Below are positions 1 through 12,606 of a stretch of 12,607 nucleotides of DNA, in pieces; position 1 is the first letter of the stretch, and every line of letters begins with the position of its first letter. Both the position numbers and the translations under genes were made by a program. Source of the stretch: Candidatus Thorarchaeota archaeon (GTDB taxonomy: Archaea; Asgardarchaeota; Thorarchaeia; Thorarchaeales; Thorarchaeaceae); NCBI GenBank assembly GCA_048882485.1, contig JBHLRP010000072.1:1-12607 (forward strand), read 5' to 3'. A model generated the notes under the pieces. It ran no database searches and had not been told where the DNA came from. It saw only the letters and a program-made list of their open reading frames with translations.

Positions 1-1827
1 TGGGTCCGGTATTCAACCGTCTTCGACACAGTTTCACCATCGATTGCCAAGTACAACAGCACCTACCACTCAGAAACGGGGTACTACATGAAATCAATAT
101 ATTCGATGAACATGACAGAGTACTGGTCCTTCACAGAGTGGCTAAACGAGAAGACTGTCTGGGTCTACAACTACATGCATGACTATGTCAAATCTCAGGT
201 CCCACACGCGCTCGTTTTTCAATACATGATGATGCCTCCAATCTGGGGCCTGCCTGACCATCTGGTCGCCCCTTATGAATTGAAGGCAGACGGATATGCG
301 ATGGATTGCTATTATGCAGTGAATAATCCCTGGTATATGCATGAGGGTGTCCGTCTGTACAAGACCTCACTTCCGGGCAAACTTCTCCACTGGGACATCT
401 GGGGCACCATCTGGGACTTCCTGAACGTGGCAGGTGATGGCCTCTACTACAGAGAGGGCAGCTACGAGCAGATTAGACGAGAAACCTGGATCTCATATGT
501 ATCAGGAGTCGATGTCCTGGGCTACTTCGACTGGGCACCTCAGAACAACGACAGCTTTGACTGGGTGTCTGGTCATGAGCGAACTGACATCATGGGACGA
601 AGACTATGGAGATATGTTGATAATCTAGCAGGTCAACTTGCCAATCTCCCTGTGATGAGTCCCAAGCCAGAGGTGCTTGTTGTAGGGAGTAGCCATTCAC
701 CAGCGGTCCCTGAAACTGGACTGTTCACAGAGTTTGATGTAGTCAACCAGCGGTGCTTTGCCACGACTGATATTGACCTCTCTCAATACTCCCTGATTGT
801 TGTATCAGATGATTGGTACCTAGACAATACGGTCACGAAGCTGAATGACTATGTTTCATTGGGAGGGAATCTCGCATTCCTGGGAGGAATCGGAGATAGG
901 GAGGGTCCAGAGGGAGACCTCCCCTTCTCTGTTGAAGTTGGTCAGACTGAGCAATTTTATAATTATCCAGTTGATATGAACATAACTGAACCGAACATAC
1001 TTGGACTCCATCTCGAGTATGAGGCCCCCTTCCATCAGACCTTTGCTCTGCTGGTGGAAAATCTTACTGCAGACCATCATCAGATAGGGGATTTCACCTT
1101 CTATGATGAGTTGGGAAATGTCACGAATATCGGAGCAAGTCCATTTCTCTTGTATCACAACAAATCACAGCCAGAGAGCGGATGGATGCTCTATTTTGGT
1201 GCACTGCACTCCTCAACAATTCCGGGCACAATTTGGGAGACCTATGACGCAGACAATGAGACTGACCTCTGGTATCTGTTCAGAGAAGTAACACGTGCAT
1301 TTGCAGACTTCCTGAACATCACTAATTCGATCGCGACACCAGAAACCAAGGATGCACTCATAACACAGAGTCTGATTGATGCAAACACACTAATGGCTGG
1401 AGTAATCAACTTCCAGAACGCTGACCGTATGATACCATATATGGTTGATCTGAGTCAGTTCGGTCTATCAGATGGCAACTACTGGGTACATTCCTTGGAC
1501 GAGGATTCCCTCTTGGGACAGTTTGAGTCGAGTCAGCAGATCCTGAGTTTGATGCTAGATGTAGTAGCAAATGGGACCAGACTCCTCCTGATCTCTGAAG
1601 AACAACCCACTCCAGACTATAGCATTGACATATTCCCCCGCATCCCCAGTGTTGCTGATGTCAATATGGCGACAACAACTCCTATTTCGACTTCAGCACC
1701 CACAACCACACCAACAGCGACTCCTCCTCCTACACCATGGAGTTTGTATGGTCTTTACATATTTGGAGTAGGAATTACAATAGTGGTTGTTACCGTCTTC
1801 ATCTGGAGAAGAAAAGAGCCAAACTGA
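1..1827 (+). CDS. Membrane-anchored extracellular glycoside-hydrolase-like protein (GH42/beta-galactosidase-like architecture), 5'-truncated by the window edge
   Basis: Frame is open from base 1 (WVRYSTVFDTVSPSIAKYNSTYHSETGYY before the M at 88), so the real start lies upstream. The aromatic-rich N-part resembles the end of a TIM barrel (IRRETWISYVSGVDVLGYFDW). It is followed by a class-I-GATase-like trimerisation segment (DLSQYSLIVVSDDWYLDNTVTKLNDYVSLGGNLAFLG), a beta-rich domain, a Thr/Pro linker, one TM helix and a basic tail (WRRKEPN). The CDS is certain; the family call is tentative. Confidence 0.6.
   Translation, partial: WVRYSTVFDTVSPSIAKYNSTYHSETGYYMKSIYSMNMTEYWSFTEWLNEKTVWVYNYMHDYVKSQVPHALVFQYMMMPPIWGLPDHLVAPYELKADGYAMDCYYAVNNPWYMHEGVRLYKTSLPGKLLHWDIWGTIWDFLNVAGDGLYYREGSYEQIRRETWISYVSGVDVLGYFDWAPQNNDSFDWVSGHERTDIMGRRLWRYVDNLAGQLANLPVMSPKPEVLVVGSSHSPAVPETGLFTEFDVVNQRCFATTDIDLSQYSLIVVSDDWYLDNTVTKLNDYVSLGGNLAFLGGIGDREGPEGDLPFSVEVGQTEQFYNYPVDMNITEPNILGLHLEYEAPFHQTFALLVENLTADHHQIGDFTFYDELGNVTNIGASPFLLYHNKSQPESGWMLYFGALHSSTIPGTIWETYDADNETDLWYLFREVTRAFADFLNITNSIATPETKDALITQSLIDANTLMAGVINFQNADRMIPYMVDLSQFGLSDGNYWVHSLDEDSLLGQFESSQQILSLMLDVVANGTRLLLISEEQPTPDYSIDIFPRIPSVADVNMATTTPISTSAPTTTPTATPPPTPWSLYGLYIFGVGITIVVVTVFIWRRKEPN
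1666..1737 (+). repeat. Low-complexity Thr/Pro/Ser linker (MATTTPISTSAPTTTPTATPPPTP)
   Basis: Directly visible in the translation, immediately before the C-terminal TM helix. Confidence 0.8.
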
Positions 1828-5926: not shown

Positions 5927-8317
5927 TCAGGGCCCCTCCACGATTCCAGTGATTAATTCTATTATATTTTCAGCAACACGTTTCGAGATCGCCTTCTGGA
6001 TAGTTTTCTTCGCTAATCTGTAGGCTCCCGAAACCTCCACATCAAGGTCCAAGAAGACTCCAACACCTGACTCCATATCTTCGAAACTTAATGCATAGAT
6101 CGTATTGATCGGAGTGGAGGGATCAAGCTGGAACTTTGTGGAGCGGTCAGTTCTGGGTCCTATCTCAATGGTGGAGATTTCTACTCCCTGCTCAACAGTG
6201 GTTCTTTGTACAATCCTATCCACAAGCTTGTCCATGAAATCTCCGAAATCGGATGGCGCTTTCTTCATCTCAAATATTAATTCCTTGCCATCCTCCGCCT
6301 TCTTTTTGCCTTCCACAACCACCCTCACACGACCAATGTTCTGGACTCGTGCATACGGAGTTTCAGGATCACCGTTCCGATGCAATGTTGCTCGAATCGC
6401 TGGGAAGTATGTACCGCTCCCAGAGAAGGTATAATCTGTCTTCACTTTCACATTGCTCTTCTTGGTGTCCTTTAGCTTCTGGACTACCGGATAATCGCCA
6501 TTACCCTCGAAATCCCATTCCACACCGACTATTGTACCAGCATCTGGCGGTGCATCGATGACCGCTGAGAATTTCACTTTCTTCCCGACTTTGACCTTTG
6601 TTCGTTCTCTCCCATTTGCAGTGACGGTGATTACTGGTTGCACTCCCCTACGATCTGAAGCCTTATGAGGAACTTCCACTTGGCCATCAACAACTTTGTA
6701 TGGTGTGCTAGCAGGAGGCGCTTCCCCTCTTTCAACCCACGCGCTCACATCACGTAACGCTTGCTGCAAGACGCCACCGTAGTTGATGACATGAGTAGTT
6801 ACGACAGGCGGGGAGTCAAGTGGCGTGACTACTGGTGGAGTGTGTAATGCATTGTCGACAAACCAGAGACGGTAGTTATCCTCGAACTGCTCACCCAAAG
6901 CGTCTTTCACCTTCGAGCGATACCAATCAGCCTGCCAAGCATAAGCGATTTCGTCCATCAAATTCTGTACCACGATCATCTTGCCAGTAAACCGACCTGT
7001 TTGAATTGAGCCAGCGCCTGTTTCAGCTTTGAACATCTCGGGTCGCTGTGGATAAAGTAGGTTACCATCAGCATCTCGAAATTGTTCAAAGACATAGTAT
7101 TCAGGTGGAGGAGTTTGGTGACGATGATAGGTTTGAAAAGCGAGATACACAGAGTTGTCAATCTCTACTTTATCACCGGCCTTAATATCAACCATCCGTC
7201 GAAAGTTATCCTCACCGAAGGCGATCATGACCATATTATCGAAAGCTCCAGCAATGTAAAGCACACAACCCTCCGCATCGCCGCTCTTCAAGAAGATTGA
7301 GGCTCCCTGAAGGTCCCCCTCTGGCAGATTCTCCATTATGAACGCTGCAGGGGGTTCTATGTCACCGGCAGCATCTGCCGAATACGCTACTGGAATGCCC
7401 ATTTCCCTGAGTTCGCTAGGCATCATCAGTTTGCTGATGGTTGTCTCATGGTGGATCCGACGGCGTTGGAGTGACTCCGGTGGGTCGGCACCGAGGTAGC
7501 CTGGTTCTTTCCAAAAGTCTTCAACATATGTTGGGTCAGTCTTGATTATTTGATCGAATAGTGTAGTTAAAACCCCTGTGTAACCGAAAGCAATCATCCT
7601 GTAATGGAACCAAGCTCTTGGAGGAAAACCCATCTTAGTCACTTCAGTGAGCGCTGCTCGTTCCTCCTCATTTAGGTCAGCATACATGTCGCCGCTACCA
7701 CCAGGCTCCACCGCATCGACAATAGCGGGCATCTTATCCTCCAACACGCGCATCGCATGAGCCTGTACGGAGAAGTTGTAGGGTATGCTGATTGGTGTAG
7801 CGTGAACAAATGGAATCACACCGTCCCAGACACCGTCTGTGTTCTCTATACAGCTGATGGTCTTGTATGCTCCGCCACTACCACCCCAGGCATAACCGTA
7901 AGTCCGATGGTCGCCATACATTTCAGCAGCCAAAACGCGGGTATATTTCGCCACTGCTGCACTGGTCCGATACCCACCGATGGTGGGATCATCGCCAGTG
8001 AACATATCCTTCCTTCCCAGGTTGGATATCACAAGATAGCCGCCGCTATCTATAGCAAAGCCTATCGAGTAGCTTGATGTTTGAGCCCCTGGTTTTTCCG
8101 CAGTATACTCGTCCCCCGATATTGGTTGGATATATTGGAAGAACCGACCTTCGTATTGCTCCTTTGGGGGGAAGTAGATTGAGAATCGGGCATCTGTGTT
8201 CCTGAATCCGCCATGGATATGCCGATGGCGTACAGGCTCGTCCCTCCATTCATCGACATCCACATATGGTTCGGTGAAAAGTGGATCGCTTGATTCAGTA
8301 GTCACTCTCGAGTTCAT
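5927..8317 (-). CDS. Tannase/feruloyl-esterase-like alpha/beta hydrolase with PKD domain and extra C-terminal domain
   Basis: Nucleophile elbow YAWGGSGG (Ser147, 7877-7879) followed by WDGVIP. Candidate Asp (NLMDE) and His (DNALH). PKD-like segment (VKFSAV...EWDFEGNGDY...YTFSGSGTYFP). No signal peptide. RBS AGGTGA at 8329-8324. The CDS is certain; substrate unknown. Confidence 0.7.
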   Translation of the reverse strand: MNSRVTTESSDPLFTEPYVDVDEWRDEPVRHRHIHGGFRNTDARFSIYFPPKEQYEGRFFQYIQPISGDEYTAEKPGAQTSSYSIGFAIDSGGYLVISNLGRKDMFTGDDPTIGGYRTSAAVAKYTRVLAAEMYGDHRTYGYAWGGSGGAYKTISCIENTDGVWDGVIPFVHATPISIPYNFSVQAHAMRVLEDKMPAIVDAVEPGGSGDMYADLNEEERAALTEVTKMGFPPRAWFHYRMIAFGYTGVLTTLFDQIIKTDPTYVEDFWKEPGYLGADPPESLQRRRIHHETTISKLMMPSELREMGIPVAYSADAAGDIEPPAAFIMENLPEGDLQGASIFLKSGDAEGCVLYIAGAFDNMVMIAFGEDNFRRMVDIKAGDKVEIDNSVYLAFQTYHRHQTPPPEYYVFEQFRDADGNLLYPQRPEMFKAETGAGSIQTGRFTGKMIVVQNLMDEIAYAWQADWYRSKVKDALGEQFEDNYRLWFVDNALHTPPVVTPLDSPPVVTTHVINYGGVLQQALRDVSAWVERGEAPPASTPYKVVDGQVEVPHKASDRRGVQPVITVTANGRERTKVKVGKKVKFSAVIDAPPDAGTIVGVEWDFEGNGDYPVVQKLKDTKKSNVKVKTDYTFSGSGTYFPAIRATLHRNGDPETPYARVQNIGRVRVVVEGKKKAEDGKELIFEMKKAPSDFGDFMDKLVDRIVQRTTVEQGVEISTIEIGPRTDRSTKFQLDPSTPINTIYALSFEDMESGVGVFLDLDVEVSGAYRLAKKTIQKAISKRVAENIIELITGIVEGP

Positions 8318-8508: not shown

Positions 8509-8532
8509 TGACCGATTTATGTTGTGTCTTTC

Positions 8533-11028
8533 ATGACGATTCAGGATTATAGAGTTGTTCCTCTACATGGAGTTCCTTCTGAGCGGGTTGGAAAAATTAG
8601 AGATAGAATGCTATCTATGCCTAGAGAACTTGATATTGAACGAGCACGATGTTATACAAGAATTTGGAAACAGATGTTAGATTCACCACCCTGCATGCGG
8701 GATGCGAGAGCATTAGAGGAATTCTTACGTTGCATTCCAATTAGGATTGATGATGATGAGCTATTGGTGGGAGTAAAATCCAGTAAAATAAGGGCGGATC
8801 CATTCGAAATAGAACGTGGAATGCGTGTGAACATTCTTAGTGTAGTCCTAGACGATAGACTGAAGACAAGACTTACGAAGGGATTTCTTGGGCTTGTCGG
8901 AAAGGTCAACAAGAGCGCCAGTGCAGCAAGCGATTTGATATTTCACGCACTTGATCGTTATGTTCCTCTTCCGGAAGAGGAACTCAATGAGTTGAAAAAC
9001 GAAATTATCCCCTTCTGGAAGGATAAGACACTATCTAGTCGAAAGTTAGAAGCACTTAGAGAAGCGGGGTTATACACCGACGCTACTGGACCTATGGCTG
9101 AAATGCTGAACAGTTTTCTAGCACAGAATCCGGATACGTATACACTAGCAGCTGATGTCCAAGGACATGTCATTCCAGGTTTTAGACGGGTTTTGAAGAT
9201 AGGCTTTAGGGGAATAGAAGATATGGCTGAAAAAGCCCTCGCGAAACTCAAAGAAACAGATGAAAACTACGAGCAACGTAAAGACTTCTATGAAGCAGTT
9301 TTGGTGAGTTCCAAAGCTGTCTGTGATTATTCCAATCGGTATGCCGATCTCGCACTGGAGATGGCTGAGAGTGCAGCAGAGGAGAGAAAAGCGGAGCTCT
9401 CAGAAATTGCCGAACGCGCAAGGAGAGTGCCAGCTCTCCCGCCCAGATCATTTATGGAAGCAATTCAATCGGTTTGGATGACGAACGTAGTTATGGAAAT
9501 GAGCTATGGTGACGGGAATGTTTTCTCTCAGGGACGAGTAGATCAATATCTCTATCCTTACTATGCCGCTGATTTAGCAGAGGGTCGGATTACCTATGAA
9601 GAGGCTTTGGAAGCCATTGAAGAATATTTAGTCAAACTTGCTTCTGTTGTAATAGCGGGACAGAATAACATCACAATTGGGGGAGTGGATAAGGATGGAA
9701 ATGATGCCACAAATGATGTAACATACATGTTTCTTGAAGCTATTGCAAATGTAAAGAGTCTACTAAACACATTGTCAATACGAATCTCCTCCAAATCCTC
9801 ACATGAGTTTATGAAAAGAGTGATTGAAACGTTTCGATATACTGCGGGAATGGCCATTCACAATGATGATATTCAAATACCACACCTTCAACAAGATGGC
9901 TATTCGCTAGAAGATGCCCGTGATTACTCAGTTGTTGGATGTGTAGAGCTTACAGGCACCGGAAATGATTTTTCTTATACAGGAGGCAACGGAATTTTCC
10001 TGGCAGTCGTTTTCCACATGGCATTGAATGAAGGACGTGTACCTATGTCAAGAGGACGACAAGTTGGTGCGAAAACTCCCGACCCCAGTACTTTCGAATC
10101 CTTTGAGGACGTCAAGCAAGCCTTTGCTGATCAGCTTGCTTATGCAATAGATAGATCCGTGAAAATGGCTGAGCTAAAGGATAAAGTATTTGCAGAACAC
10201 TTTCCTTCACCCTTGATCTCTTCTACCATAGAAGGATGTCTGGAGAGTGGAATGGATATCACCCGGAATGGCGCACGCTACAATAATAGTTGTATGAACG
10301 GTCAGGCATTAGGAACTGTAGCTGACTCACTTGCTGCAATTCGATGGGCTGTTTTTGAGGAAAAAATAGTAACAATGGGCGAATTGGTTGAACATGTTCG
10401 TAATAATTTCAAAGGCGCAGAAGAACTCAGGGAACAACTAGTGAATAAAGCTCCCAAATATGGTAATGGTGATGAAAAAGCAGATGAACTCGCAAAATGG
10501 GTCGCAGATGTGTTTAGTGAGATGCCAAGAAAACACCATGTGAGGGGTGGTACAGGTATATACCGAGCCAGCCTTGTATCTGCCGCAGGATCACAGGTTA
10601 GCGAAGGTCAGATGATAGGAGCTACACCAGACGGAAGATTACGTGGGGAACCTGTATCTAACGGACTTTCTCCTGTAAATGGCACAGAACGGAACGGTCT
10701 TACCATGGTACTCCGGTCAGTCGCTGAAGCCTCACGAGATGCTCTTCTAACTGACGGAGTAGGAGTAAATGTGAGACTTAATCCAAGCTTGATTGAGGAT
10801 GATGAGGGAAGAGACAAAATAGCATCTATAGTAGAAGCCTATTTTGAGCTAGGAGGGAGAGAGCTTCAAATCAATCCAATAAGTTCAGAAACACTGAGAG
10901 ATGCACAGATTCATCCAGAAAAATACCCTGACCTTTCAGTCAAGGTGACAGGTTACTCTGCACGGTTTATTGACTTAACTAAAGCTCTTCAGGATGATAT
11001 TATCGCACGAACCGTCTTCAATGGATGA
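8533..11028 (+). CDS. Glycyl radical enzyme (PFL-like superfamily), unknown substrate
   Basis: IERAR, IRIDDDELLVG, GHVIPGF..VLKIGF.GI, RVPA.PP.SF.EAIQ, GRVDQYLYPYY, Cys loop VVGCVE (Cys 9940-9942), GTVADSLAAI, APKYGN, GATPDGR..GEP...GLSP, Gly loop VKVTGYSARF (Gly 10951-10953), QDDIIART. Start is ATG 8533 or GTG 8524. Confidence 0.95.
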   Translation: MTIQDYRVVPLHGVPSERVGKIRDRMLSMPRELDIERARCYTRIWKQMLDSPPCMRDARALEEFLRCIPIRIDDDELLVGVKSSKIRADPFEIERGMRVNILSVVLDDRLKTRLTKGFLGLVGKVNKSASAASDLIFHALDRYVPLPEEELNELKNEIIPFWKDKTLSSRKLEALREAGLYTDATGPMAEMLNSFLAQNPDTYTLAADVQGHVIPGFRRVLKIGFRGIEDMAEKALAKLKETDENYEQRKDFYEAVLVSSKAVCDYSNRYADLALEMAESAAEERKAELSEIAERARRVPALPPRSFMEAIQSVWMTNVVMEMSYGDGNVFSQGRVDQYLYPYYAADLAEGRITYEEALEAIEEYLVKLASVVIAGQNNITIGGVDKDGNDATNDVTYMFLEAIANVKSLLNTLSIRISSKSSHEFMKRVIETFRYTAGMAIHNDDIQIPHLQQDGYSLEDARDYSVVGCVELTGTGNDFSYTGGNGIFLAVVFHMALNEGRVPMSRGRQVGAKTPDPSTFESFEDVKQAFADQLAYAIDRSVKMAELKDKVFAEHFPSPLISSTIEGCLESGMDITRNGARYNNSCMNGQALGTVADSLAAIRWAVFEEKIVTMGELVEHVRNNFKGAEELREQLVNKAPKYGNGDEKADELAKWVADVFSEMPRKHHVRGGTGIYRASLVSAAGSQVSEGQMIGATPDGRLRGEPVSNGLSPVNGTERNGLTMVLRSVAEASRDALLTDGVGVNVRLNPSLIEDDEGRDKIASIVEAYFELGGRELQINPISSETLRDAQIHPEKYPDLSVKVTGYSARFIDLTKALQDDIIARTVFNG

Positions 11029-11031
11029 CAA

Positions 11032-11988
11032 TCAACGAGTCAGACCCGACCGCTTTACATGTTCCACTCCAGTGGTTTTTGCAATATCCAGAAAATGTTC
11101 CATCTGATCTTTTGTCATCAAAGGCTCGTCTTCCAGAGGCCATGACATCCCTAGCCTTGAGTATTTTATTTCACAGAGTTTATTGAAGGCTAGCAAGTCC
11201 CAGATATCAGGAATATTGTTCAATTCATTTACAATGAATTCTCCAATCCCTTTGACATTCTCTTCAGTAGCAGTATAGTTGGGGATTAGTGGTGTTCGTA
11301 TCCACATCACCTTTCCATTTTCTTTGACGTAACGGGCTATCCATTTGGCATTTTCCAAAATAGTGCTATTTCTAACTCCTGTATATTCCTGGTGTTGTAC
11401 AGAATCGATGACCTTTAGATCTAGAAGAACTATGTCAGTATAGGGAAGCAAATCTTGGTAGACATTCTTGCTTGAGTAACCGCATGTATCTAATGCAGTA
11501 GAGATGTCATTGTCCTTACATAGTTTCAACAATTGCAAAAGAAAGTCTGGCTGTAATGTCGGTTCGCCACCAGAAGCAGTGATACCGCCATTAGTTTTCT
11601 TGAAGAAGATCTTTTCCTTCTCAATCTCGTGAAAAAGCTCTTCTAAGTCCCACCATTTTCCAAACATAGTCAATGCAGTACTAGGACAAGCCTCAACACA
11701 TTCTCCGCAGCTGGTACATCTCTCTCGGTAAATATGCAAAACATCTTTTTCAAATTGCAGCGCCTTTTCTTGACAAGCCTCTATGCAACGTTTGCATCCA
11801 ATACATTTATGGTCTATCCACTGAAGTTGAGGTTCTTTTGGAATTGATTCTGGATTATGACACCAAACGCAATTTAATAGACATCTATTGAAATAAATCG
11901 TCGTACGAAGACCAGGGCCATCGTCCGTGGTCATTCTCTCAATTTTGAAGATCAATCCCCTAGACTTTGATTCTATAACCGGCGCCAC
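11032..11988 (-). CDS. Glycyl-radical enzyme activating protein (radical SAM, long type with 2x[4Fe-4S] ferredoxin-like insert)
   Basis: DGPGLRT, CxxxCxxC (CLLNCVWCHNPES, 11883-11860), two CxxCxxCxxxC motifs, GGITASGGEP, ALDTCG, DLK, IRTPLIP. GTG start. Confidence 0.95.
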   Translation of the reverse strand: MAPVIESKSRGLIFKIERMTTDDGPGLRTTIYFNRCLLNCVWCHNPESIPKEPQLQWIDHKCIGCKRCIEACQEKALQFEKDVLHIYRERCTSCGECVEACPSTALTMFGKWWDLEELFHEIEKEKIFFKKTNGGITASGGEPTLQPDFLLQLLKLCKDNDISTALDTCGYSSKNVYQDLLPYTDIVLLDLKVIDSVQHQEYTGVRNSTILENAKWIARYVKENGKVMWIRTPLIPNYTATEENVKGIGEFIVNELNNIPDIWDLLAFNKLCEIKYSRLGMSWPLEDEPLMTKDQMEHFLDIAKTTGVEHVKRSGLTR

Positions 11989-12030: not shown

Positions 12031-12606
12031 TCATGGATTATTCAGGTGATTATCTTGACTTTCTTTCAAAAGGTTTCCAATCAAAGCGCGGAGGTACTTC
12101 TCCTTTTCTTCTAGCATCGCATAATGTGCTGAGTTTTCGAATATGACTAGTCTCTTTCCTCCTTCAGCCTTTAATTGATTGAAGAACTCTTCCACAACGA
12201 CTGTAGGAGTGATCATATCGTGTTTGCCTTCAAAGAAGAATATAGGAACTTTGATCAAATCTATCTCTGTTGTAAGATTGACTTCTGTCAGTTCCTTCCA
12301 CAAAGCATGCGTAGTGAAATTTCGTCCTTTTCCCATTAGTGTTCTAATTCCTTCCATTAACGAATATTCAGGTGAAGTCAAATAGGGTAGAACGAGTCCA
12401 ATCATTTGTCCAATGGCGAAATCTGCCATCATGCCTCCATATCGAACAATATAGTTGGCTTTTTCCCATAGCTTGTTGGGAGTTTCATAGGGTGGAAGTC
12501 CAATTGCTTCAATCGCAGCTTGATGTTTTGCATTACCTAATCTTTTAGCTTCTTCAATAATGAAATTGTAGTTTATTGTTTCATGCTCACAGTCGTTGAT
12601 AATTTG
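12031..12606 (-). CDS. Alpha/beta hydrolase (Abhydrolase_1, proline-iminopeptidase-like), C-terminal part; 5' end outside the window
   Basis: Frame stays open to the window edge (QIINDCEHETINYNFIIEEAKRLGNAKHQAAIEAIGLPPY...RYGGMM). Catalytic Asp and His segments VPIFFFEGKHDMITP and IFENSAH are present. Confidence 0.85.
   Translation of the reverse strand, partial: QIINDCEHETINYNFIIEEAKRLGNAKHQAAIEAIGLPPYETPNKLWEKANYIVRYGGMMADFAIGQMIGLVLPYLTSPEYSLMEGIRTLMGKGRNFTTHALWKELTEVNLTTEIDLIKVPIFFFEGKHDMITPTVVVEEFFNQLKAEGGKRLVIFENSAHYAMLEEKEKYLRALIGNLLKESQDNHLNNP

Follow-up and report, generated by a model that had tools for sequence, protein, structure and literature searches.

Pyruvate formate-lyase (PFL)-like glycyl radical enzymes (GREs) with an assigned function are all bacterial, and whole clades of the superfamily, especially archaeal ones, lack validation according to a 2026 review that lists every characterised PFL-like class (PMC13450708). 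The characterised eliminases and isomerases all keep a Cys-x-Glu (CxE) motif, the Glu of which is hydrogen-bonded to a substrate hydroxyl, and in glycerol dehydratase (GD) His164 protonates the leaving hydroxyl (PMC13450708). PFL2 of Archaeoglobus fulgidus (PDB 2F3O), whose function the same review leaves unassigned, is the only PFL-like GRE of an archaeon with a solved structure, and its function is disputed. Here we describe P0001, an 831-residue GRE encoded at positions 8533–11028 of the plus strand of a contig from Candidatus Thorarchaeota archaeon (JBHLRP010000072.1, assembly GCA_048882485.1). The window that we analysed is the entire contig of 12,607 nt. Pfam and NCBIfam models, an AF2 model and phylogenetic trees place P0001 in an Asgard-centred clade without a characterised member.

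A GRE clade outside the characterised classes

The open reading frame (ORF) at 8524/8533–11028 is intact and, from the ATG at 8533, encodes a protein that matches the PFL-like (PF02901, 534 bits) and Gly_radical (PF01228, 82 bits) families of Pfam. P0001 has the glycyl radical motif, the Cys loop and the PFL-like barrel of the GRE superfamily, and a convergent gene at 11032–11988 encodes its cognate radical S-adenosylmethionine (radical-SAM) activase. An AF2 model built with 66 relatives as input has a pLDDT of 90.2 and a pTM of 0.91, and is poor only at residues 115–138 (pLDDT <50), within a low-confidence stretch of approximately residues 105–140 (8845–8952, plus strand) where family lengths also vary (809–831 residues). 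Foldseek searches with this model matched GRE structures at TM 0.8–0.89, with 22–32% sequence identity to every characterised GRE structure returned, which include propanediol dehydratase (PD), HpyG, HpzG, HplG, YbiW, PflD, IseG/IslA, HpsG, BSS, MASS and HPAD.

P0001 falls under the cut-off of every NCBIfam equivalog model: hydroxyproline dehydratase HypD (NF043068, 494 bits against 1100), sulfopropanediol sulfolyase HpsG (489 against 1000), HpfG (461 against 1000), choline trimethylamine-lyase CutC (TIGR04394, 454 against 1050), PflD (384 against 1109), IAD (352 against 1100), HPAD (275 against 1150) and PFL (TIGR01255, 135 against 994). The subfamily model TIGR01774 is also not reached (547 against 678). 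Among solved structures, the highest sequence scores are those of CutC (428 bits), GD (388) and HypD (378). In a FastTree phylogeny of 191 rows and an IQ-TREE phylogeny of 58 rows, the family forms a fully supported clade, and the enclosing clade of 46 or 29 rows, respectively, is also fully supported and contains other Asgard GREs and unnamed representatives with zero references. The references in the trees were GD, two PD-like enzymes, CutC, HypD, a YbiW-like enzyme, IslA and HpsG; BssA/AssA, PhdB, HPAD, IAD, HplG, HpyG/HpzG, PflD and A. fulgidus PFL2 were compared through bit scores, Foldseek identities and statements in the respective papers. Within these references, P0001 is by sequence outside all characterised GRE classes. 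A preliminary description of the locus had reached the same view by eye and had proposed a phylogeny as a check; the sub-cut-off scores, the low structural identities and the specificity residues described below bear it out, and the family lies outside every reference clade in both trees.

The clade is centred on Asgard archaea and includes a small number of bacterial sequences. The nearest protein is 94% identical to P0001, followed by approximately 90 clusters at about 64–82% identity, all from metagenome-assembled genomes (MAGs) of Asgard archaea labelled as Hermod-, Thor-, Loki-, Odin-, Hod- or Promethearchaeota. The next tier consists of bacterial MAGs (for example Actinomycetota) at about 50–54% identity. 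A set of 1.84 billion representatives, clustered at 50% identity, holds only 4–5 clusters at 47–53% identity to P0001, and at 43% or below the scores merge into the general GRE continuum. The distribution is patchy: 41 of 400 genomes of the phylum, mostly of one family, carry a copy with at least 65% identity, as do only 3 of the 16 other scored genomes of the window's genus. The trees show the Asgard copies nested within bacterial relatives.

The source genome (3.96 Mb, 90.5% complete) encodes four GREs and two activases. One of the other GREs (contig C14:30321–32264; locus L008:1495–3861) is a true HypD, scoring 1245 bits against the cut-off of 1100, and groups with bacterial HypD in both trees. 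A 93%-identical orthologue of P0001 in the same genus (G376:C152:398–2839) contains one in-frame TGA.

Active site

The catalytic columns of the family are highly conserved. Among 66 relatives there is little or no variation at Q210-G211-H212, S324, G326, G334-R335-D337, T381, G383-G384, C470, E472 and the Gly loop. Of these, Q210-G211-H212, C470, E472 and the Gly loop behave alike in 47 family copies from Asgard genomes, in which three pocket segments are also near-fixed: EMSYG(E/D)GN(I/V)FSQG, IAGQNN(I/V)TIGG and GCVEPxGTGNDFSYT(A/G)GN. Together with the more than 90 clusters of related proteins at 64–94% identity, the invariance of these columns indicates that P0001 is a real gene under selection. 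The Cys loop, GCVE, spans residues 469–472 (9937–9948, plus strand, as for all motifs of P0001), with C470 and E472 invariant, and the glycyl radical loop recognised by Pfam Gly_radical, VKVTGYSARF, spans residues 803–812 (10939–10968) around Gly807, with Lys where Arg is usual. The invariant His212 closes the motif DVQGH (His codon at 9166–9168). The segment SYGDGN (residues 324–329, 9502–9519) ends in Asn329, which almost every Asgard copy keeps, with Ser in a few, and which is replaced in bacterial relatives. The family divides into three subtypes, A, B and C, which differ on the late strand (SLVSAAGSQ in P0001, residues 680–688, 10570–10596) and in the post-Cys hairpin (NDFSYTGGNG, residues 478–487, 9964–9993); P0001 is of type A.

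We compared these residues with those of the characterised enzymes in HMMER alignments and in a separate multiple alignment, which agree, and verified the GD numbering at H164, H281, S282, Y339, C433, E435, D447, Y640 and G763. The closest structural match is GD of Clostridium butyricum (DhaB1, PDB 1R8W; Foldseek TM 0.87), which, together with the GRE-type PDs, shares with P0001 the ten-stranded barrel, the Gly and Cys loops, the CxE motif and a His at the position of GD His164; both systems also have an activase of their own, which carries a ferredoxin insert, and an alcohol dehydrogenase (ADH) in the neighbourhood. P0001 is nevertheless only 31% identical to it, belongs to a different clade and, as noted above, scores below TIGR01774. 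Of the residue set that defines the GD/PD pocket (His164, His281-Ser282, Tyr339, Asp447 and Tyr640), P0001 keeps the His164 equivalent alone: Asn329 and Val330 replace His281 and Ser282, so that G-H-S reads G-N-V, Gly484/485 lie in the Asp447 region, Val682 takes the place of Tyr640, and the loop with Tyr339 is deleted.

CutC, the top-scoring solved structure, also has the CxE motif, and its Thr502 corresponds to Thr483 of P0001, but its Asp216 is replaced by His212, its Tyr506 by Gly, and its Phe389/Phe395 loop is deleted. HypD shares the CxE motif and an equivalent of His212 (His160), but its Asp278 aligns with Asn329, and it forms a separate clade. Isethionate sulfite-lyase (IslA) and HpsG resemble P0001 in their CxE eliminase core, nearly equal length and similar numbering; they form their own clade beside CutC, and their sulfonate-binding triad Arg189/Gln193/Arg678 is represented in P0001 by Asp208/His212/Ser680. 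A. fulgidus PFL2 is likewise archaeal with a single Cys (375 bits, TM 0.86, about 30% identity), and stood outside the reference set of the trees. Some of the remaining classes are set apart at the Glu472 position. The phenylacetate decarboxylase PhdB has Cys-x-Gln there, and BssA and PflB have Ser (PMC7079210), which together with the scores separates the X-succinate synthases; HPAD and IAD are set apart by their equivalog cut-offs, and a gene for the small subunit of HPAD was not found in the window. The preliminary description had named several of these differences, and its motifs all lie in the translation where it had placed them. Its Cys-Cys pair of PFL is the PflB pair that aligns with Gly469-Cys470, and the differences it listed for CutC, for GD and PD and for HypD hold in the alignments. 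It erred in ascribing a CM-type loop to IslA: the loops of IslA and HpsG are of the CxE type (GCIE and GCTE).

The motif C470-V471-E472 is the CxE signature of GRE 1,2-eliminases and isomerases, and is invariant in the family. His212 aligns with GD His164, HypD His160, CutC Asp216 and IslA Gln193. Among the references, this position holds His in GD, PD, HypD and the YbiW-like enzyme (C–O cleavage), Asp in CutC (C–N) and Gln in IslA and HpsG (C–S). Because the residue follows the leaving group in these alignments, the invariant His212 and Glu472 favour an elimination that cleaves a C–O bond.

In the alignments, the pocket positions also differ from those of GD, CutC and HypD. Between the end of the KLAS helix and the NITIGG strand, P0001 is about 13–16 residues shorter than GD, CutC and HypD, and this shortened segment (LASVVIAGQNNITIGG, 9637–9684) is conserved across the 47 family copies. 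The deleted loop is the one that carries GD Tyr339 and CutC Phe389/Phe395, which we take to be pocket residues, and the aligned pocket positions in P0001 are Asn, Gln, Ser, Thr, Gly and Val. Alignment to GD, CutC, HypD and IslA thus suggests a pocket that is larger and polar.

Gene clusters of related loci

We collected 34 loci with family members of at least 65% identity, from few genera and mostly from one family, and clustered their ORFs. A conserved neighbourhood recurs in about 18–19 of them, comprising a divergent SBP_bac_5 gene, a 179-residue ORF, two permeases, two Opp/Dpp-type ATPases and one to four tandem GREs, followed by a convergent activase and then a TetR-family gene. The permease and ATPase genes stand immediately 5′ of the GREs and share their orientation. 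As three genera of a single family account for these common clusters, the clusters are not independent. Arrays of tandem GREs on one activase comprise four copies in L126, three each in L135 and L142, and two each in L116, L122, L127 and L130–L133, and the copies within one locus mix subtypes. Aldehyde:ferredoxin oxidoreductase (AOR) is part of the cluster in 6 of the 34 loci, five of which also have an iron-type ADH (Fe-ADH). A zinc-type ADH (Zn-ADH) stands beside the activase in L114, which also carries a GDSL esterase, and in L115, and lies two genes beyond the activase in L001, all three being loci of the window's own lineage; around the 94%-identical orthologue, the gene order of the window is kept and Zn-ADHs are added. 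With ADH and AOR as neighbours, the product is more likely to be an aldehyde or ketone, and the pairing of GRE and ADH follows the same gene logic as dhaB1-dhaB2-dhaT of C. butyricum.

The transporter, GRE, AOR and TetR promoters of the Lokiarchaeia-type clusters share a 21-bp palindrome, TAAATTTAC-NNN-GTAAATTTA (L121–L125, L128, L132–L134, L138 and L141; for example L122:1372–1392 and 10024–10044). Its sites lie in the divergent promoter of the SBP and permease genes, 36–48 nt 5′ of GRE starts, and in the activase/TetR and activase/AOR intergenic regions, and 49 of the 73 exact half-site matches are intergenic. The palindrome is probably the TetR operator, and its sharing makes it probable that transporter, GRE, AOR and regulator constitute one regulon. 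Opp-type importers in archaea carry oligosaccharides as well as peptides; the SBP_bac_5 protein was too divergent for its ligand to be deduced.

Beyond these loci the theme fades. Ten more distant Asgard GRE loci (40–50% identity) showed no shared neighbourhood theme and none had the transporter, and the context of the bacterial relatives holds little besides GRE and activase. We found no description of the GRE cluster in the literature. Separately, a 516-residue FAD-dependent oxidoreductase (PF12831, FAD_oxidored) stands beside the GRE in five Asgard loci and in one bacterial locus (among them L002:892–2442, L006:12950–14500, L116, L120 and L124). Its archaeal and bacterial copies are 59% identical, it had no informative PDB or NCBIfam match, and it was not found in the window's genome.

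Proposed reaction and alternatives

By analogy with the characterised eliminases, we give about even chances to P0001 being a functional 1,2-eliminase that cleaves a C–O bond and yields a carbonyl product. In such a reaction, the convergent activase would install a radical on Gly807, and Cys470 would relay it to the substrate by taking a hydrogen from the hydroxyl-bearing carbon. Glu472 would deprotonate the hydroxyl while His212 protonates an O-linked leaving group, hydroxyl or alkoxide, on the adjacent carbon. The resulting aldehyde or ketone could be reduced by a nearby ADH or, in the six related loci with AOR, oxidised by that enzyme. The substrate would be polar and probably larger than glycerol, propanediol or choline: a polar substrate larger than C3 diols is favoured by the loop deletion, by pocket residues that are small or polar, and by the relatives' Opp-type importer. 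In Lokiarchaeia-type relatives it would probably be imported by the Opp-type ABC transporter under TetR control, and in the window's genome the neighbouring esterases may instead release it. A narrower proposal, that the clade carries out radical β-elimination of a large O-linked leaving group rather than water (an ether, glycosidic or acyloxy group of an imported glycoside or polyol conjugate), is possible but doubtful. The preliminary description had called the enzyme eliminase-like, to which the CxE motif, the invariant His and the ADH and AOR genes beside relatives lend support. Its bulky substrate is plausible from the aligned pocket positions, and the new GRE reaction that it proposed for that substrate may turn out to be a known type, C–O elimination, on a new substrate.

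Several observations weigh against elimination at a C–O bond. The reaction type is proposed from analogy and gene context, in a clade whose members have no assigned activity, and CxE also occurs in the decarboxylases HPAD and IAD, such that the motif alone does not prove elimination. The pocket size derives from alignment, with the pocket role of Tyr339 and Phe389/395 assumed rather than derived here. The ABC importer, AOR and Fe-ADH, TetR and the operator are all absent from the window, and an orthologue of the SBP gene and the operator were not found in the window's genome at its 90.5% completeness; transfer of this context to P0001 is therefore indirect. Furthermore, the neighbourhood is not kept between orthologues of 77–82% identity, and AOR and Fe-ADH occur in just 6 and 5 of the 34 loci, which are not independent of each other.

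The CxE core is equally shared by CutC, IslA and HpsG, such that P0001 might be a 1,2-eliminase whose leaving group is not O-linked, that is, a C–N, C–S or C–P lyase whose substrate would be an amino alcohol, a sulfonate or a phosph(on)ate ester. Osmolyte-type substrates are common in marine sediments, and the best partial NCBIfam matches of the cluster Fe-ADH, all sub-cut-off, are aldehyde, lactaldehyde and sulfoacetaldehyde reductases. The residues that would handle such groups are changed, however: CutC Asp216 is His, the IslA/HpsG triad is lost, and among the references a His at position 212 accompanies C–O cleavage. We consider such a lyase unlikely. Comparably unlikely is an isomerase of the YbiW/PflD/HplG type, which would turn a cyclic ether or amine, such as an anhydro-sugar, into a keto product by ring opening, with no net elimination. 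Isomerases keep CxE, the YbiW-like reference has His at the His212 position, and a polar pocket with an oligosaccharide-capable Opp-type importer would suit a sugar; yet the PflD equivalog score is about a third of its cut-off (384 against 1109), the YbiW-like reference lies in another clade, the AOR of the cluster speaks for an aldehyde and not for a ketose phosphate, and no aldolase or kinase recurs in the loci. The presence of CxE in HPAD and IAD, and the full-length alignment of the NCBIfam IAD model in one stretch, would also fit a radical decarboxylase like these two, with an arylacetate or related acid as its substrate. This is improbable, as both equivalog scores fall far short (352 and 275 bits), HPAD is the weakest full-length PFL-like structural match (22% identity), a small Fe-S subunit gene was not found in the window or the 34 loci, ADH and AOR neighbours would have no role after decarboxylation, and the aligned pocket positions are polar, not aromatic.

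That GD is the best structural match, with His164 and CxE kept, raises the case of a divergent orthologue of the small-diol dehydratases, acting on glycerol, propanediol or ethylene glycol. The ADH neighbours would fit dha/pdu logic and the MHETase-like neighbour described below could release ethylene glycol, but the replacement of His281, Ser282, Asp447 and Tyr640, the loss of the Tyr339 loop, the 31% identity and the sub-TIGR01774 score, and the fact that small diols need no Opp-type importer, make such an orthologue about as improbable. Two published labels fare worse. Hermodarchaeota GREs have been assigned as alkyl- or benzylsuccinate synthases on the basis of 29–33% identity to AssA/BssA and a single active-site Cys (Zhang et al. 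2021, PMC8163825). All non-PFL GREs share the single Cys, the BssA residue at the Glu472 position is Ser (PMC7079210), and BSS and MASS are among the weakest matches of P0001 (232–235 bits, 24–25% identity). Genes for the β, γ and δ small subunits were not found in the window or the loci, and the BSS channel is hydrophobic, whereas the aligned pocket positions here are polar. Such a synthase is highly unlikely for P0001's clade, to which our rejection applies; the five published Hermodarchaeota proteins may lie inside or outside it. The label of a pyruvate or 2-ketoacid formate-lyase ('pflD') is carried by Asgard genome papers, which use pflD for formate production (PMC11291895), and is echoed in the database names of the relatives, 'pyruvate formate lyase family protein'. 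Against it stand Gly469-Cys470 in place of the PflB Cys-Cys pair, a TIGR01255 score of 135 against 994 and the position of Escherichia coli PFL among the most distant solved structures; we consider this function the least likely of all.

Genes flanking the GRE

The activase P0003 (318 residues, 11032–11988, minus strand) scores 300.6 bits against the TIGR02494 cut-off of 174. It has a CxxxCxxC motif at C36/C40/C43 (11860–11883) and a two-cluster ferredoxin insert with Fer4 matches at residues 59–108. The GRE and activase genes converge with their stop codons 3 nt apart (11026–11034), which leaves no room for separate terminators. Beyond the activase, the C-terminal part of an α/β hydrolase (12031–12606, minus strand) with weak matches to Hydrolase_4 and the proline iminopeptidase family is cut by the contig end; in L001, a full orthologue of 367 residues is followed by the Zn-ADH.

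On the other side of the GRE, P0002 (796 residues, 5927–8317, minus strand) is, from its AF2 fold and atlas neighbours, a distant α/β hydrolase of the tannase, feruloyl esterase or MHETase type with a PKD-like domain. It had zero Pfam matches and zero PDB sequence matches; its language-model neighbours have weak Tannase and PKD matches, and the nearest folds to its AF2 model (pLDDT 81) are MHETase, feruloyl esterases and tannase at weak TM values of 0.25–0.38. The family is very large, with more than 3900 matches at E <1e-10, all annotated 'hypothetical', about 60% identity between Asgard and bacterial members, and a nearly invariant G-G-S-G-G motif. Of the 41 genomes with the GRE family, 22 carry P0002-like genes, against 39 of the 359 without it, and in 11 genomes, from 5 genera, no more than about 2 kb separates such a gene from the GRE. 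As related genomes are not independent, this association is a lead, not a test. P0002-like genes with one in-frame TAG occur in three genomes of one Asgard genus, and one in another family has two TGA (loci with in-frame stops: G117:C1:3543254–3545275, G118:C154:3415–5436, G121:C270:3341–5347 and G114:C43:7435–9456); these may reflect stop-codon recoding or broken genes.

Next to P0002 lies P0004 (4104–5918, plus strand), a member of the carboxylesterase family (Pfam COesterase, 294 bits) that recurs in the orthologous loci L001, L114 and L115. At the contig start, an ORF of 608 residues that is open at its 5′ end (1–1827, plus strand) had no family match. Its C-terminal Thr/Pro-rich stalk, transmembrane anchor and many N-x-S/T sequons indicate that it is probably a glycosylated surface protein.

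Implications for Asgard metabolism

The clade of P0001 is a subfamily of its own, amplified and centred on Asgard archaea, whose members have an eliminase core and for which a regulon can be defined. It is not a new kind of system; GRE clades without annotation are common and acknowledged in the field (PMC13450708). The clade is widespread among Asgard archaea, and a single locus can hold as many as four tandem copies. Models of sediment carbon cycling and of eukaryogenesis draw on Asgard metabolism, and the labels of PFL and of alkyl- or benzylsuccinate synthase underlie claims of formate production or hydrocarbon degradation. The active-site residues of P0001's clade, as aligned here, do not support either label. 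The conserved regulon offers three ways into the search for the substrate: through the binding protein, through the TetR repressor and its 21-bp operator, and through the AOR/ADH pair. If elimination of a large O-linked leaving group were true of this clade, P0001 and its relatives would be the first archaeal PFL-like GREs with an assigned function, and Asgard archaea would possess a TetR-controlled pathway of import, radical cleavage and further conversion by AOR and ADH.

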